Positions 11,434 through 21,200 of a stretch of DNA of 64,000 bases are shown here, in pieces. How positions within the stretch are numbered: position 1 is the stretch's first letter; each line of letters begins with the position of its first letter. The notes under the pieces are model-generated. The model saw only the letters and a list, made by a program, of their open reading frames with translations, was not told the origin of the DNA and made no database searches. The DNA is from an uncultured Chloroflexia bacterium (GTDB taxonomy: Bacteria; Chloroflexota; Anaerolineae; JAAYZQ01): positions 1,088,001 through 1,152,000 of the forward strand of contig CAVOXA010000001.1 of NCBI GenBank assembly GCA_963700285.1, written 5' to 3'. The position numbers were made by a program, and so were the translations under genes.

Positions 11434-12069
11434 CTAGAACTCGGCAGCGCTCCCCTTGTTGGCAGTGGCCACGATGAGACGCAAGAACCCACCGAGCTTG
11501 CTATCTACCCGCTCAACCAGGAATCCAGCCTGGACCAGGTTCTCTTCTGTCTCCCGGTTCAGGTGGCACCGTCCGTTGAATGCGTACCAGGGGATGTTCG
11601 CCAGATCCGATATCTGGGCCAGACCGGCGCGGTGGGGTCGCATGTGCTCCAGGAGGAGTAATTGCCCTCCGGGCGTCGTGAGCACGCGCATCAGCTCGTT
11701 CAAGGTACGCCGCTGATCGACGACGCTGCACAGCACCAGACTGGCCACGACGTAATCAAAGCAGCCTGCCGGAAAGGTCAGGTTTTCCACATCAGATTGG
11801 CTAAAGCGCACAGGGAGTTTGAGTGCCTGCGCTCGCTGCGCAGCAAAGCCCAACATATCGGCGCTTTCGTCGATAGCGGTCAGGCAAACTGAGGGGTGGT
11901 AGAAAGGTAGATTGGCCCCGGTACCCACACCGATCTCCAGTACCTTGCCCCGGGCCCGTGGGAGAAGCTGGCTCCGCAGCTCCCGCAGCCACAGTTTTTC
12001 CAGGGGTGCCATGCCCCGGTCATAGGGCGCGGCGATACGATCGAACGTATTACTCTCAGTCTGTGCCAT
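11434..12069 (-). CDS. Class I SAM-dependent methyltransferase
   Basis: VLEIGVGTG motif I, FDYVVASLVLCSV, LLEH, GRCHLNR. Confidence 0.9.
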   Translation of the reverse strand: MAQTESNTFDRIAAPYDRGMAPLEKLWLRELRSQLLPRARGKVLEIGVGTGANLPFYHPSVCLTAIDESADMLGFAAQRAQALKLPVRFSQSDVENLTFPAGCFDYVVASLVLCSVVDQRRTLNELMRVLTTPGGQLLLLEHMRPHRAGLAQISDLANIPWYAFNGRCHLNRETEENLVQAGFLVERVDSKLGGFLRLIVATANKGSAAEF

Positions 12070-12217
12070 TCGAGCCCTGCGCCGTCAGCATCGCCAGCTC
12101 TTCCTCAAGATCCTCAAGTTCAATGATCATGGCTGCTGGCACTGAATGTTTGGGGAGTCGGGCCTCCAGTTCGGCGATCTGTTTCTTCAGTTGGGCGATC
12201 CGTTCATCCTTGCTCAT
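12056..12217 (-). CDS. Small conserved coiled-coil protein (53 aa)
   Basis: MSKDERIAQLKKQIAELEARLPKHSVPAAMIIELEDLEEEL. AGGAG RBS upstream. Overlaps the methyltransferase start. Confidence 0.75.
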   Translation of the reverse strand: MSKDERIAQLKKQIAELEARLPKHSVPAAMIIELEDLEEELAMLTAQGSNGTD

Positions 12218-12302
12218 GGCCACTTCTCCTACCGTTGGCGTGTGGCTATCGGGTGCCAAGACCCCAGGCGGGAACCAACACTTGACTTTACGTGTTGTGA
12301 AC

Positions 12303-12331
12303 TTGACAGGCCCGCAACCCTCTGCTATACT
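12303..12331 (+). promoter_or_regulatory. Sigma70 promoter of the thioredoxin/selenoprotein operon
   Basis: TTGACA (12303-12308), 17 nt, TGC-TATACT (12326-12331). Confidence 0.8.
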
Positions 12332-12338
12332 GTAGCCG

Positions 12339-12355
12339 ATACCCCTATGGGGTAT
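12339..12355. promoter_or_regulatory. CsoR/RcnR-family operator
   Basis: Perfect inverted repeat ATACCCC-TAT-GGGGTAT with the family's C-tract/G-tract layout. A CsoR-family gene lies in the downstream operon. Confidence 0.85.
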
Positions 12356-12370
12356 GTCGGTTTGATGCAT

Positions 12371-12399
12371 ATCTTATCACGATACAGGCTTTTTGTCAA
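12371..12399 (-). promoter_or_regulatory. Face-to-face sigma70 promoter for the small-protein/methyltransferase operon
   Basis: Minus strand TTGACA (12399-12394), 17 nt, TGA-TAAGAT (12376-12371). Confidence 0.65.
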
Positions 12400-12438
12400 C
12401 GTTGCGGATGGTTGATGGGCCGAGAACTGGAGGGGCTG

Positions 12439-12909
12439 GTGTCTGGTCTGCTACAAAGGTTGTTTGGCAAGAAAGAGGATGGGAAATCAGAGGCTGTTGC
12501 GACCGCTAGCAGTGAGTCGGTTGGTAATGGGAACAGCGACTCTGATGCCACGGGTGATCTGGATGCCGGCGCGACCGTGTCTGATGCCGAGCCGATCCAT
12601 GTTACGGATGAGAATTTTGACGAGATGGTAGGGAATTCGCGCTTGCCCGTGTTGGTTGATTTCTGGGCGCCCTGGTGTGGTCCGTGTCGCATGGTAGCCC
12701 CGGTGGTAGAAGACCTGGCCAGGGCTTACGATGGACGGGCGTTGATGGCCAAAGTGAACACCGATGAGAATGTGCAGGTGGCCAGCAACCTGGACATCAT
12801 GGGCATCCCAACGTTGATCCTGTTCAAGGATGGACAGGAGATTGATCGGGTGGTCGGTTACGTTCCCCAGCGCGTGCTTGAAGAAAAGCTGAACGCGGCG
12901 TTAAACTAG
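12439..12909 (+). CDS. trxA: Thioredoxin with N-terminal low-complexity extension
   Basis: VDFWAPWCGPCR, IMGIPTL cis-Pro loop, FKDG. GTG start at 12439 after GGAGG. Confidence 0.9.
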   Translation: MSGLLQRLFGKKEDGKSEAVATASSESVGNGNSDSDATGDLDAGATVSDAEPIHVTDENFDEMVGNSRLPVLVDFWAPWCGPCRMVAPVVEDLARAYDGRALMAKVNTDENVQVASNLDIMGIPTLILFKDGQEIDRVVGYVPQRVLEEKLNAALN

Positions 12910-12918
12910 GAGGTCTGG

Positions 12919-13350
12919 GTGCACGCTTTTCGGGACAAGACGGGTCGTTTTTTCAGGGAGAATTGGCTCTTTCTGCTCGTCGTTGGTGGAGTCATTGCGG
13001 CATTCCTGGCGCTCCGTACTCCTGCCAGCGCTGTGGGCTCTGTCGCTGAAGTTGATGCTCTGTTGCAGAATGGGCAGCCAACCTTCGTCGAGTTTTATTC
13101 CAACACTTGAGGCTCCTGCCTTTTGGCAAAGCCTGTCGTGGACAGGCTGGAGCGAGATCTGGAGGGAGAAGCACGGGTGCTGCGCCTAAGTGCCTGGGAT
13201 TCAGTGGGCCGCCAGCTCGCCTCGCGCTATGGCGTGCGCGGCGTCCCCACGTTCTTGCTGTTTGATGGTTCGGGACACATGGTCCACTACCAGGTGGGGC
13301 GCCTGGACGCGGACCAAGTCAAGGCTCAGATCAACTTATTGGGGAGGTGA
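12919..13350 (+). CDS. Membrane-anchored thioredoxin-like selenoprotein (UxxC; TGA 13108-13110 read as Sec64; 143 aa)
   Basis: ORFs 12919..13110 and 13123..13350 share one frame. Readthrough gives FVEFYSNT-U-GSC-LLAKPVVD...GVRGVPTF, placing U at the attacking Cys of a Trx fold. SECIS-like hairpin follows. Confidence 0.9.
13112..13153 (+). promoter_or_regulatory. Putative bacterial SECIS 1
   Basis: AGCCTGTC-GTG-GACAGGCT (13130-13148), loop 27 nt after the TGA. Lower stem GCTCC/GGAGC. Confidence 0.75.
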
Positions 13351-13354
13351 ACCT

Positions 13355-13579
13355 GTGCCCATCTACGAGTATACCTGCGGAGATTGTCACGAGCAGTTTG
13401 AAAAGTTTGTGCGTTCCATGACGTCGACCGTTGAGGTCAAATGCCCCGTATGCGGGGGAACGCACGTCAAGAAGGGGTGGTCCACATTTGGCACGGGAAA
13501 TGCCGGCTCGGGCTTTAATCTAGCGACATCCGCAGCCAGCAACTGCAGCCCAGGTGGCACCTGAGGCATTCCTCGCTGA
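13355..13579 (+). CDS. FmdB-family zinc-ribbon protein with putative C-terminal Sec (TGA 13562-13564; ...NCSPGGT-U-GIPR)
   Basis: MPIYEYTCGDC...KCPVCG is the FmdB signature. GGAGG RBS precedes GTG 13355. The gene is certain to 13564; the extension rests on the SECIS-like hairpin. Confidence 0.75.
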
Positions 13580-13595
13580 GAGCCGTGGGCTCTCA
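13577..13595 (+). promoter_or_regulatory. Putative bacterial SECIS 2
   Basis: TGAGAGCC-GTG-GGCTCTCA, loop 20 nt after TGA 13564. No U-tract, so not a terminator. Confidence 0.65.
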
Positions 13596-13653
13596 TATTC
13601 CACAAGTTTCTGCTTTGTTCGATGAAGTTGGGGTTGAGAAGGTGAAGTGGGCT

Positions 13654-13947
13654 ATGGTGCTATCGTCTGAGACTCGGGAAGACATGTTGGCCAGGATGCG
13701 ACGCATCGAAGGGCAGGCCCGCGGCGTGGAGAGGATGATCGCCGAGGACAGAGATTGCCTGGACATACTGACACAGCTGGCCTCGCTGCGTTCGGCGGCC
13801 TACAGCGTCAGCGTCGCATTGACGCAGCACTTTGCCCTCCAATTTGTCCGCGATAGCCGCCAACAAGGCCTGCCTCCCGACCAACAACAGCTTCCTGACG
13901 ATGCCATGCGAAACCTGGTGGACGTGCTGCTGCGGACACCACACTGA
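13654..13947 (+). CDS. CsoR/RcnR-family metal/sulfur-sensing transcriptional repressor
   Basis: RMRRIEGQARGVERMIAEDRDCLDILTQLAS family signature. Confidence 0.9.
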   Translation: MVLSSETREDMLARMRRIEGQARGVERMIAEDRDCLDILTQLASLRSAAYSVSVALTQHFALQFVRDSRQQGLPPDQQQLPDDAMRNLVDVLLRTPH

Positions 13948-13959
13948 CCACTGAAAGGG

Positions 13960-14136
13960 ATGGGTATTGTGGAGATTTTTGGCTTGAGTGCGGATGTGAT
14001 TCTGGTAATAGGGCTTCTGATAGGTTGGGTGGTGCTGATGCGCTTTGTCCTGCCCCGATTTGGGGTTTCGACCTGAATGAGCGAGTCCTGCGACGCGGCG
14101 TCGCCGCGTGAGGAAAAAGACCAAGTCGCAGATTGA
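13960..14136 (+). CDS. Small single-pass membrane selenoprotein (58 aa; TGA 14074-14076 read as Sec)
   Basis: Absent from the ORF track. Translates MGIVEIFGLSADVILVIGLLIGWVVLMRFVLPRFGVST-U-MSESCDAASPREEKDQVAD*. Start may be GTG 13969. SECIS-like hairpin follows the TGA and the operon terminator follows the final stop. Confidence 0.7.
14086..14114 (+). promoter_or_regulatory. Putative bacterial SECIS 3
   Basis: ACGCGGC-GTC-GCCGCGT (14093-14109), loop 23 nt after the TGA. Outer TCCT/AGGA pairing. Confidence 0.65.
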
Positions 14137-14160
14137 ATGGAACTCTTTGCATTTTGTCTG

Positions 14161-14196
14161 AAAAGGGCGGTATCTGATACTGATACCGCCCTTTTT
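14161..14196 (+). terminator. Intrinsic (bidirectional-type) terminator closing the operon
   Basis: AAAAGGGCGGTATC-tgatact-GATACCGCCCTTTTT. Confidence 0.85.
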
Positions 14197-14231
14197 GTTC
14201 ACACCAGTTGCGCAAAAGAATTTCACCTTGA

Positions 14232-14260
14232 TTGACAAAGGCCGGCAACCATGGTACAAT
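14232..14260 (+). promoter_or_regulatory. Sigma70 promoter
   Basis: TTGACA (14232-14237), 17 nt, TGG-TACAAT (14255-14260). Confidence 0.75.
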
Positions 14261-14316
14261 AGAGGCTGGTGAAAGAGGCCATAAGCGGTTTCACGAGTGG
14301 AGGAGGAGGGAGGGTT

Positions 14317-14757
14317 ATGCTGAATGAGAATCGACCGGTCTACACGATAGGCACAGCGGCCGAACTCTTGAGTGTTCATCCACGCACACTGCGCCTGTAC
14401 GAGGATGCGGGGCTGATTCGCCCGGCGCGCAAGAACAATCGCCGTTTCTATTCGGCCACCGACCTGGAATGGATCAATTGTGTGCGCTACATGATCCACG
14501 AACAGGGACTGAATCAGGAGGGGCTCCGGCGCTTGCTGGCGCTAATTCCTTGCTGGGAGATCAATGCCTGCCCACCGGAGAGCAAGGCCAACTGTTCTGC
14601 TTGGTCAGATCGCACGACGCCCTGTTGGGACCTGGCCCGTACAAGCAGGGCCGAGTCGAAAAAGTGCCACGAGTGCCAAGTCTATCTATCTGCCAGAGAC
14701 CACTTGATGGGTGAGGCAGAGATGGAGGCTGCGCTGAACTATGCAGCGGCCAGTTGA
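14317..14757 (+). CDS. MerR-family (HspR-like HTH) regulator with Cys-rich C-terminal domain
   Basis: YTIGTAAELLSVHPRTLRLYE...RRFYS HTH. Tail PCWEINAC...C...PCW...CHECQVY. Confidence 0.85.
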   Translation: MLNENRPVYTIGTAAELLSVHPRTLRLYEDAGLIRPARKNNRRFYSATDLEWINCVRYMIHEQGLNQEGLRRLLALIPCWEINACPPESKANCSAWSDRTTPCWDLARTSRAESKKCHECQVYLSARDHLMGEAEMEAALNYAAAS

Positions 14758-18284: not shown

Positions 18285-21200
18285 GTGAGTATGGGGCAGA
18301 GACGGCAGTGTGTTCGCATTTTGGCAGGTCTACTGGTGTTAAGCCTGGTAGTCACATCTGTCCCGTGGACTGGTATACAGGTCCAGGCGCAGGCAACCGA
18401 GTTGTTCTTTTCCGAGTACATAGAGGGCTCGAGCAACAACAAGGCCCTGGAGATCTACAATGGCACCGGGGCCGCGATCGATCTGGCAGCCGGCGGCTAC
18501 AACGTCCAGATGTATTTCAACGGAAGTGCGAGCGCCGGCCTCACGATCAACCTGACCGGCACGGTGGCGGATGGGGATGTGTTCGTGCTGGCCCACTCCT
18601 CGCGCTGACGCGACCATCCTCGCCCAGGCTGACCAGACCAACGGCGCGGGGTGGTTCAATGGCAACGATGCGGTTGTGCTGCGCAATGGTACGACCATCC
18701 TTGATGTCATTGGCCAGATCGGCTTTAACCCCGGCACCGAATGGGGCAGCGGCCTGACCAGCACCGCCGACAACACCCTGCGCCGCAAGGCGACCATCTG
18801 TGCCGGCGATCCGGACGGCAGCAATGCCTTTGACCCATCCGTTGAGTGGGATGGTTTCGCCACGAATACCTTTGACGGACTGGGAGCGCACACGGCCAAC
18901 TGCGGTCCGACGCCGCAAGAGCCCAAGATCAACGAGTTCTCGGCCAGCACCACTGGCACCGATGTAGAGTACGTCGAGATCTTTGGCTCTGCGGATACCG
19001 ATTACTCTGCCTACACGGTTCTGGAAATCGAAGGGGATACGCACCGGCGCTGGCGTGGTTGACGAGGTCATCCCCGTCGGCACGACCGATTCCGCCGGAT
19101 TCTGGCTTGCAGAACCTGGCCGCAAATGCGCTGGAGAACGGCACGCATCACCCTGCTGCTGGTCAAGGACTTTAGCCGGTGCATTCAGCGACGATCTCGA
19201 CACGGACAATGATGGCGCCTTCGATGTCACGCCCTGGAGCGCGATCGTCGATGCCGTCGCTGTGAACGACGGTGGGGCAGGCGATCTGACCTACGGCGTG
19301 CCGGCCCTCGGCCCGAACTACGATGGCGTCAGCAGCTTTGCCCCCGGCGGCGCTTCGCGCTATCCCCGACGGCTTCGACACGGACAGCCGCCACCGACTG
19401 GGTGCGCAACGACTTCGACCTGGCCGGCATCCCCGGCTTCCCGGCACCATCGTGCCTGGGCGAGGCGTACAACACGCCCGGCGCACCGAACGAGATCTAT
19501 GTTCCGCCGCCCGAAGCCTGCGGCGACCCCTTCACGCCCATCTACGACGTGCAGGGCAACGGCCTGACCAGCCCGCTGGTGGGCACGGAAGTGGCCGTCG
19601 AAGGCGTCGTCGTCGGCGACTTTCAGAACAATGACCAGCCCGACAACGGCAACCTGAACGGCTTCCACGTTCAGGATCCGGTCGGCGATGGCGATCCAGC
19701 CACCTCGGATGGCGTCTTTATCTACGCCCCAGGCGGCATGGATGTCAGCGTGGGCGATGCCGTGCGCGTGCGCGGCACGGTGTCCGAGTACAACGGCATG
19801 ACCGAGATCACCGCGAGCCAGATCTGGCTGTGCTCGAGCGGCAACAGCGTGGCTCCAACCGCACGTCTCACTGCCCGTGGCAAGTCTGGACGATTTCGAG
19901 CCCTTCGAGGGCATGCTGGTCACCTTCCCGCAGTCGCTCTACATCTCCGAGTACTTCAACTTTGACCGCTTCGGCGAGATCGTGCTGACCGCGGATCGCC
20001 AGTCCCAGCCGACGGCCGTCTACGAGCCTGGGTCGCCGGAGGCAGCAGCCGCTGGCGCAGGCTAACCTGCTCGACCGCATCACGCTCGACGATGGGCGCA
20101 CCACGCAGAACCCCGATCCGGCCATCCACCCCAACGGCGGCATCTTTGACCTGACCAACCTGTTCCGCGGCGGCGACACGGTCCAGAACGTGACCGGCGT
20201 GATGGACTACAGCTTTGGCCTGTACCGCATCCAGCCGACTCAGGGCGCGGACTATACCATCGGCCAATCCCCGCACCGGCCCAGCCCGACGACGTGGGCG
20301 GCAGCCTGAAGGTGGCCTCCTTCAACGTGCTCAACTACTTTACGACTCTTGACGACGGTGTCTGGATCTGTGGCCCGGCGGGAGACCAGGAATGCCGCGG
20401 CGCTGACACCCCTGAGGAGTTCACGCGCCAGCGGGACAAGATCATCGCCGCCCTGGCTGCCATCAATGCCGACGTGGTCGGGCTGATCGAGATCGAGAAC
20501 CATCCGGGCGATGTGCCCACGGCCGACCTGGTAGCTGGGCTCAACGATGTGATGGGCGCGGGAACCTACGACTACATCGCCACCGGCGCCATCGGCACCG
20601 ACGCCATCCGGCAGGCCTTCATCTACAAGCCGGCGACGGTGACGCCGCTGGGCGCCTACGCCATCCTCGATTCCTCGGTGGACCCCCGCTTCCTGGATGA
20701 CTACAACCGGCCGGTACTGGCCCAGACCTTTCAGGACAACGCCACCGGCGGCATCTTCACCGTGGCGGTCAACCACCTCAAGTCCAAGGGCTCGGACTGC
20801 AACGACGTCGGCGATCCCGATCTTGGCGATGGCGCCGGCAACTGCAACCTGACCCGCAAAGCCGCGGCCGAGGCCCTGGTGGACTGGCTGGCGACCGATC
20901 CCACCGGCAGCGGCGACGCCGACTTCCTGATCATCGGCGACCTGAACTCCTACGACAAGGAAGATCCGATCGACGTCTTGCTGGCTGGCGGCTACACCGA
21001 CCTGATCTACCAATTCCTGGGCGAATACGCCTACTCCTACGTCTTTGACGGCCAGATCGGCTACCTCGACCATGCCCTGGCCGGCGCGAACGTGAACCTG
21101 CTGGACGAGGTCACCGGCGTGACGGTCTGGCACATCAACGCCGACGAGCCCGACCTGATCGACTATGACATGAGCTTCAAGCAGGACGCCCAGGATGCGC

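Follow-up and report, generated by a model that had tools for sequence, protein, structure and literature searches.

The gene under study lies in a 64,000-nucleotide stretch of DNA (the window) from an uncultured Chloroflexia bacterium, where it is the second gene of a predicted operon. The gene order is trxA, the Sec-thioredoxin gene, fmdB, a CsoR-family gene and the gene for a small membrane peptide, followed by an inverted repeat (Table 1). This full five-gene order occurs only in close relatives, and most distant orthologues of the Sec-thioredoxin sit in other neighbourhoods. A MerR-family, HspR-like regulator gene with a Cys-rich C-terminal part (14317-14757) lies downstream, has a promoter match of its own and follows the operon in 13 of the 80 best orthologue loci.

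Table 1. Features of the predicted operon, in window coordinates
Feature	Position	Strand	Basis or remark
Sigma-70-type promoter match TTGACA-17-TATACT for the operon	12303..12331	+	11/12 matches; similar promoter in relatives
Palindrome TACCCC-TAT-GGGGTA, predicted CsoR-family operator	12340..12354	.	Rarity; conservation near fmdB loci
Divergent promoter match, also fronted by the palindrome	12399-12371	-	
trxA, classical WCGPC thioredoxin (start codon uncertain)	12412..12909	+	TIGR01068 120 bits, cut-off 96.8
AGGAGG ahead of the Sec-thioredoxin gene	12908-12913	+	Overlaps trxA stop
Predicted Sec-thioredoxin gene, 143 aa	12919..13350	+	GTG start; true stop TGA 13348-13350
Hydrophobic helix, residues 16-32, predicted uncleaved membrane anchor	12964..13014	+	Model, charge counts
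In-frame TGA, predicted Sec64, first position of U-G-S-C	13108..13110	+	74 TGA and 6 Cys in best 80 orthologue loci
Predicted SECIS of the Sec-thioredoxin gene, 8-pair stem, GTG loop at +30	13130..13148	+	Covariation, frozen codons
fmdB, FmdB-family zinc ribbon, predicted C-terminal Sec: C-SPGGT-U(TGA 13562-13564)-GIPR-stop	13355..13579	+	TIGR02605 over cut-off
Predicted SECIS of fmdB in the 3' untranslated region, loop G at +23	13578..13594	+	Covariation
CsoR/RcnR-family repressor without Cu-binding His	13654..13947	+	PF02583
Single-helix membrane peptide, 55-58 aa, predicted Sec: GVST-U(TGA 14074-14076)-MSES-C	13960..14136	+	TGA conserved; Cys homologues
Hairpin of the peptide gene, predicted SECIS, stem of 7 pairs, loop GTC at +26	14093..14109	+	
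Likely operon terminator, 10-pair inverted repeat and T run	14165..14198	+	By sequence; terminator scan did not call it

Two open reading frames, 12919-13110 (63 residues) and 13123-13350 (75 residues), share a common frame, and reading TGA 13108-13110 as selenocysteine (Sec, U) joins them into a protein of 143 residues with the motif EFYSNT-U-GS-C (U64 and C67). The first-pass annotation had described this merger together with a GVPT loop, a hydrophobic anchor and a hairpin behind the TGA, and each of these is in place, the GVPT at residues 108-111 (nt 13240-13251). The joined protein scores 44.7 bits against Pfam Thioredoxin (PF00085, cut-off 23.5) over residues 47-138, a match that spans the TGA. 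In a profile alignment of 27 orthologues with solved thioredoxins, U64 aligns with the first Cys of WCGPC, Glu58 takes the column of the Asp before WCGPC and Arg89 that of the Lys of the next strand in the classical proteins, and Pro110 of the predicted cis-Pro loop is invariant (27/27). An AlphaFold model with the site entered as Cys (pLDDT 87.9) has thioredoxin topology, its core being preceded by an N-terminal helix and by the hydrophobic one, and its top PDB matches are thioredoxins (E 7e-9). Score, fold, a CxxC-type site at the start of a helix and the Pro loop together place the protein in the PF00085 family. Databases store the C-terminal 75-residue half as a separate entry, which lacks the active site.

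Within that family the protein is not a classical TrxA, since it scores 49.8 bits against TIGR01068 (cut-off 96.8), has SNT-U-GS-C at the active site and carries a membrane helix. The DsbE, ResA, StoA and DsbA models score it far below their cut-offs, and with these low scores and ccdA near none of the best 80 loci it does not belong to the CcmG/DsbE, ResA, StoA or TlpA groups. When the NCBIfam selenoprotein models (SaoT, TsoX, TsoY, HUIPC, GOS_C and others) were run against the 27 thioredoxin members, a weak TsoB match was the sole result; the TsoY model matched nothing in the genome, and its control was silent too. A plasmid search with a Cys orthologue as query returned ordinary trxA genes only.

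The evidence for selenocysteine comes largely from orthologues, for which we used the best 80 loci of a species-level genome collection, titled almost all Anaerolineae or other Chloroflexota. Site 64 is TGA in 74 of these loci and TGC or TGT in the other 6, so that the Cys expected by the first-pass annotation in this column is indeed found there; among the best 30 loci from 61 related genomes the same column holds 29 TGA and 1 Cys. The hairpin of the window, AGCCTGTC-GTG-GACAGGCT, has its loop G 30 nt from the T of the TGA, and a GTN-loop hairpin at exactly +30 is present in 72 of the 74 TGA forms versus none of the 6 Cys forms. When such hairpins are sought with a strict filter (loop starting with GT and closed by C-G, stem of at least 6 pairs, 18-34 nt behind the stop), 20 of the 7954 TAA/TAG stops of the genome and 19 of its 9128 TGA stops qualify (~0.2%). 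Across 29 aligned loci 96% of the stem cells pair, with 15 two-sided changes; this pairing was reached by 0 of 500 shuffles, a test that relatedness inflates, and slid controls pair at 21-40%. Covariation in the stem occurs even where it alters the protein (PVVDR versus PIVDG), and third codon positions within the stem are frozen among the 74 TGA forms (Val73 GTC in 51/51, Gly76 GGG in 41/41), the codon for Pro72 being only CCC or CCT (74/74). Among other Sec genes of the genome, the GrdB/PrdB-type sites have the same C-G-closed GTN loop and formate dehydrogenase has a similar GT-containing loop. No SECIS family of Rfam matches 12200-14300; a sub-threshold match to the L20 leader in this interval was taken as chance.

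A UGA aligned with Cys in homologues, homology on both sides of it and a loop-G stem-loop that is kept by covariation and lost in the Cys forms are what is expected of a bacterial Sec codon. On this comparative evidence UGA 13108 is very likely decoded as selenocysteine by way of the hairpin behind it. The earlier proposal of Sec at the attacking-Cys position of a membrane-anchored thioredoxin is strongly supported by the alignment, the TGA/Cys column, the hairpin and the distribution of selA given below. We see hardly any room for TGA 13108 being a real stop (between two small genes or in a pseudogene), a sequencing error or a Trp codon under an altered code, even though the assembly is rich in indels with both selB and selD frameshifted, databases list the 75-residue half alone and three JGI proteins carry W at the site. 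The same TGA recurs at 74 loci, from independent assemblies, and all 74 TGA forms retain Cys67, a residue that would fall in untranslated sequence if each half were a gene of its own; the alternative forms have Cys, never TGG. A UGA=Trp code was rejected because TGA ends 507 of 1181 long open reading frames in the genome and the sole tRNA with a UCA anticodon is tRNA-Sec. A 229-residue database entry that unites the thioredoxin with FmdB is no natural fusion, as three TGAs are read as W in it, one of them the true stop of the thioredoxin gene; given that this W-reading entry runs through the true stop into fmdB, we regard it as a gene-caller artefact. Sequencing runs contained at most 0.32 of the words per run, and their contigs are small, none spanning the TGA.

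The genome has all four of selA, selB, selC and selD, of which selA and tRNA-Sec are intact and selB and selD frameshifted in this assembly. Because 41 of 72 open reading frames compared with a same-genus genome show non-triplet gaps, marking an indel-rich assembly, and because selB is whole in 5/5 relatives including the same-genus genome, we read these frameshifts as assembly error; of 3 relatives tested for selD only one has a whole copy, and none was found in the same-genus genome or in a further relative. The selD gene (G000:C9:56718) has an in-frame TGA of its own (AAG-U-ASK), with tRNA genes just upstream. By eye, a secreted endonuclease/lamin-tail-like gene at 18285-20200 of the window appears broken over several frames, as fits such an assembly.

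Among 67 genomes surveyed, which are incomplete, selA was found in 61; the TGA form is present in 48 of these, a distant Cys paralogue in 9, and in 4 the site was unread. All 48 TGA-form genomes tested have the gene, and it is absent in exactly the six genomes with a Cys form of this subfamily. In a quick tree, calculated with the site masked and one short row (L113) excluded, these six Cys forms come together as one clade (SH-aLRT 99), nested in a larger group that has a support of 96 and includes 51 Sec forms, which suggests a single Sec-to-Cys replacement accompanied by loss of the machinery; on this phylogeny the six are to be counted as one event, not six. Cys does not always track selA loss, since 9 loci are more distant paralogues with Cys in selA-positive genomes. 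Distant membrane-anchored paralogues from other Chloroflexota families (L153-L172) mix Sec and Cys in selA-positive genomes, and three of them have U-GG-S instead of U-xx-C. A typical Anaerolineae-type copy was also present on a 2.2-kb contig titled Thiohalocapsa (L084), which groups with Chloroflexota rows in the tree and is therefore likely mis-binned.

The two small genes fmdB and the membrane peptide gene likely hide a Sec codon like that of the thioredoxin gene. The FmdB protein has two CxxC pairs and scores 48.6 bits against TIGR02605 (cut-off 31.3), a model that 22/22 members match; four Cys are invariant, and there is a single C-terminal U. Its first stop is a TGA with a hairpin in 61/61 loci, a set of overlapping loci that includes near-duplicates and kin, against a background in which TGA ends 507 of the 1181 long open reading frames and a hairpin follows in 10-13%. 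The hairpin, which lies beyond the true stop, shows 21 two-sided changes in 30 loci (0/500 shuffles), its innermost pair being open in 19 of the 30. Among the best 150 database relatives of FmdB, a lone Cys stands within 6 residues of the end in 97 and a Cys-x3-6-Cys tail is seen in 33, these Cys tails being loose counterparts of the Sec tail and not a tight alignment. From these patterns we are confident that the FmdB tail is recoded with Sec.

The peptide has the layout helix-RFVLPRFGVST-TGA-MSES-C-acidic tail, and a TGA lies inside 25/25 matches from the 61 related genomes. It has 1148 protein-database matches at E 0.01; of the best 120, 112 end at GVxT, that is, exactly at the UGA, 7 continue with Cys and one with W. 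In 56 metagenome loci that were found with Cys forms, 22 have TGA and 33 Cys (four non-peptide regex matches and one locus without a match being dropped), and a hairpin follows in 19/22 TGA forms versus 0/33 Cys forms, near-duplicates and kin included. Recoding of the peptide with Sec is thus predicted with high confidence. A structural model has one helix (3-33) and a disordered tail, and the charges predict the U-x4-C side in the cytoplasm (20/20). In a sample of 201 genomes from across the phylum the peptide was found in only 2, compared with 25 of 61 relatives. Genes next to its relatives, from a scan that covered 93 of 132 neighbour open reading frames, encode thioredoxins, peroxiredoxins, CoA-disulfide reductase-rhodanese, YgaP-like, ArsR, rubrerythrin and zinc anti-sigma proteins, and RND efflux and unrelated genes as well. 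No Pfam or NCBIfam family matches the peptide, and the NCBIfam selenoprotein models match none of 20 members. By names, models and motifs, no entry fitting either the U-x4-C peptide or a C-terminal FmdB Sec appears in a 119-family catalogue (PMC13188914), and neither was found in print in the main-text literature, whose supplements could list such families; a term search found no mention of FmdB or Anaerolineae in the searchable portions of PMC13326102, PMC12013277 and PMC13745706.

The palindrome in front of the operon is found at only 6 places in 7.05 Mb, of which 4 adjoin a promoter match, and in relatives too a similar promoter precedes the operator. The palindrome lies upstream in 19 of 21 loci with fmdB downstream versus 4 of 55 other loci, after four of the best 80 loci with <400 nt upstream were dropped. 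By eye, further copies of the palindrome lie ahead of another csoR-trxA pair, of a ferredoxin-like gene and of a cluster of CoA-binding, ECF sigma, zinc anti-sigma and glutaredoxin-like genes. This last operator-controlled cluster (G000:C15:122158-125600) also holds, by eye, an OsmC-like gene and a small gene that reads S-C-APGG-TGA-GP, a possible further selenoprotein. A SAM methyltransferase gene and a gene for a 56-residue coiled-coil protein (11434-12226, minus strand) diverge from the operon and may be co-regulated with it, given that the divergent promoter match adjoins the same palindrome.

The operon-type CsoR proteins of relatives have two Cys, no Cu-binding His and F or Y four residues before the second Cys. 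They show neither the x-C-H-C motif nor the nearby copA/copZ of the Cu(I)-sensing CsoR proteins, and a separate C-H-C CsoR elsewhere in the genome adjoins a copZ-like gene; a copper regulon was dropped as first choice on these grounds. In the sections cited here, x-C-x-C CsoR proteins are described as reactive-sulfur sensors (10.1101/2021.07.25.453692), and TAC/GTA repeats with G/C runs as typical of CsoR-family operators (PMC10318464). Stress by thiols or reactive sulfur, not copper or cytochrome c maturation, is what the operator and its regulon point to. The repressor copy of the window has Phe (nt 13843-13845) in place of the second Cys, so that the x-C-x-C motif of the CstR persulfide sensors is present in the relatives' repressors and absent in this one. 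A 217-nt contig of an independent run (3 differences) has no change at the Phe, and more distant contigs have Cys; since the independent contig agrees, the Cys-to-Phe change is probably real. Without its second Cys this copy may not sense, and an x-C-x-C paralogue (G000:C10:762017) may take over.

In the thioredoxin, an Arg/Lys-bearing N-terminal helix precedes the hydrophobic helix 16-32. For counts of charges and anchors one of the best 80 loci, which has no anchor, was dropped. An A-x-A follows the helix in only 12/79 loci and a lipobox-type Cys in 0/79, which led us to reject a cleaved signal peptide and a lipoprotein; probably the anchor stays uncleaved. The N side of the helix carries the higher net charge in 72/79 loci (and in 29/29 in a separate count), whereas the number of Lys and Arg is higher there in only 54/79 and equal or higher on the C side in 25/79, from which we lean modestly towards a catalytic domain outside the cell.

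A domain outside the cell would depend on an electron donor that spans the membrane. Elsewhere in the genome there are ccdA and a ResA-like lipoprotein gene, beside a cytochrome c maturation gene, and CcdA-type genes are present in 31 of 38 genomes (not found in 7, three of them >90% complete). Around the best 80 loci (median 9.6 kb) the neighbours include trxB in 24, csoR in 22, trxA in 18 and ccdA in 0; trxB lies directly downstream of the Sec-thioredoxin gene in three loci (L119, L127 and L129). These counts are from targeted searches, which replaced a first neighbour clustering confounded by shadow ORFs. In 29 of the 80 loci (within L079-L136), from more distant Anaerolineae, an endonuclease IV-like gene precedes the Sec-thioredoxin gene, and fmdB, csoR and trxB are often found 3-6 kb upstream. 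Of the two suggestions made by the first-pass annotation, possible export agrees with the N-in/C-out net charge and is weakened by the Lys/Arg count and by the neighbours, with ccdA at none of the loci and trxB at 24. For pairing with the WCGPC thioredoxin, the two genes are neighbours in 18 of the best 80 loci, and the pairing extends as far as predicted co-regulation only.

Together these data lead us to favour, with moderate confidence and from sequence and models, a membrane-anchored Sec disulfide reductase that likely takes part in a thiol/sulfur-redox stress response with the two other predicted selenoproteins of the operon. In thioredoxin chemistry the residue at the first position attacks and the second Cys resolves. 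By this chemistry the Sec64 selenolate would attack a substrate disulfide or persulfide, Cys67 would resolve the mixed bond, and the resulting Se-S bond would then be re-reduced. The two-Cys CsoR-family repressor would bind TACCCC-n3-GGGGTA and release it when its own thiols are oxidised, and this release would induce trxA together with the genes for the Sec-thioredoxin, the zinc ribbon with its Sec tail and the membrane peptide with Sec. The N-terminus would lie inside and the catalytic domain, by a modest preference, outside, in which case electrons would come from cytoplasmic TrxA via the CcdA encoded elsewhere in the genome.

The main rival is the same selenoprotein with its domain in the cytoplasm, re-reduced by TrxB and acting on membrane targets such as the U-x4-C peptide. 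It draws its strength from ccdA in 0/80 and trxB in 24/80 loci, in three of them directly downstream, from the predicted cytoplasmic side of the U-x4-C motif (20/20), from the retained acidic and basic residues of classical thioredoxins and from 171-residue Cys relatives which, by eye, have two hydrophobic helices and a basic stretch after the second. With the N-in/C-out net charge in 72/79 and 29/29 loci and CcdA in 31/38 genomes standing against it, we consider a cytoplasmic domain possible but rather unlikely. An outward selenoprotein might alternatively serve biogenesis, like HCF164/TxlA or ResA, by reducing apocytochrome c CxxCH motifs or by introducing and shuffling disulfides in exported proteins. 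This we find improbable, as the genome already has ccdA and the ResA-like gene beside its cytochrome c maturation gene, ccdA is near none of the best 80 loci, the DsbE, ResA, StoA and DsbA models remain far below their cut-offs, and the operator and neighbours point to stress control.

Beyond the favoured stress-linked reductase, the operon could be viewed as an oxidant-inducible membrane selenium redox module of Anaerolineae, in which an outward Sec-thioredoxin, a cytoplasm-facing U-x4-C peptide from a widespread and undescribed Sec/Cys family and a Sec-tailed zinc ribbon are controlled by one dithiol repressor; we put this forward as a speculative and doubtful reading. In its boldest form the peptide may be a minimal membrane carrier or sensor that couples cytoplasmic TrxA/TrxB to the anchored thioredoxin without CcdA.

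A motif scan of the genome for other selenoproteins gave mostly noise, the plausible results being formate dehydrogenase, SelD, two GrdB/PrdB-type sites and two G-U-GG sites. Two paralogues (G000:C1:551583 and C1:566142) with EGEG-TGA-GGS and a GCCTCC-GTT-GGAGG hairpin are likely further selenoproteins, and a genome-wide filter for TGA plus hairpin yielded the candidates FHLD-U-PKHPC (G000:C5:212004, minus strand) and CYPVCCS-U-EG (C11:1827, minus strand).

On its own the thioredoxin gene is one more UxxC thioredoxin, of a membrane-anchored subfamily, and its main value lies in its neighbourhood. Of the five genes that make up this small predicted operon, three appear to encode selenoproteins that are wrongly annotated, and the U-x4-C peptide, with more than 1000 database relatives, is a candidate family to add to the prokaryotic selenoproteome. 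The Cys forms provide a clean case of Sec-to-Cys replacement with loss of hairpin and selA, and the 15-bp operator offers a way to test which genes an uncharacterised x-C-x-C CsoR controls in Chloroflexota that are abundant but uncultured.

Among known regulators, the closest likeness is to the CstR-type x-C-x-C CsoR (10.1101/2021.07.25.453692) and T. thermophilus TTHA1953 (PMC10318464). As described in the parts of these papers cited, they share with the operon two Cys without a Cu-binding His, a TAC...GTA palindrome that lies over the promoter region and has runs of C and G, and redox genes downstream; the operon differs in having no rhodanese, TauE or Sox genes, and the repressor of the window in its Phe at the second Cys. 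The SAO operon and C-terminal Sec proteins such as SaoC (10.1101/2022.07.06.499078, in part) resemble it as a multi-selenoprotein operon with a SECIS behind the true stop, whereas the families here are others, with no MerB-like lyase or ABC transporter and with a thioredoxin and CsoR context. The FmdB selenoprotein of TIGR02605, listed in the relevant portions of PMC2398784 and PMC13188914 as UxxU with two Sec, is likewise a zinc ribbon with a Sec-type UGA. The FmdB of the operon does not have this catalogued form, but keeps both CxxC pairs as Cys, has a single predicted Sec 2-5 residues from the C-terminus in C-x4/5-U-G and has its hairpin beyond the true stop.

The plastid HCF164/CCS5 and the cyanobacterial TxlA have the same architecture of a membrane-anchored minimal thioredoxin (PMC3842002), TxlA being the cyanobacterial counterpart of HCF164 (PMC12658273), in the passages cited. 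Compared by architecture, the gene described here is a Sec form and has no photosynthetic or cytochrome c genes nearby. An Atlas search with a natural Cys orthologue found cyanobacterial thioredoxin clusters of similar size, ranked behind those of Chloroflexota. We take cd02950 to be the TxlA family. Several Trx-like UxxC groups, including 'Trx-like 3 (cd02950, UxxC)', are named along with the FmdB family in the consulted part of the GOS survey (PMC2398784), and in Table 1 of PMC13188914 the UxxC form of Trx counts as verified and that of PF13098 as predicted, FmdB being entered with a UxxU motif and two Sec. Set apart by description, the gene differs from the known UxxC thioredoxins in its single N-terminal membrane helix and in SNT-U-xx-C in place of W-C-G-P-C. 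It has in common with them the thioredoxin fold, Sec at the first position of CxxC, the in-frame UGA and the downstream hairpin with a G in its loop, and is a membrane-anchored member of this known kind of selenoprotein.
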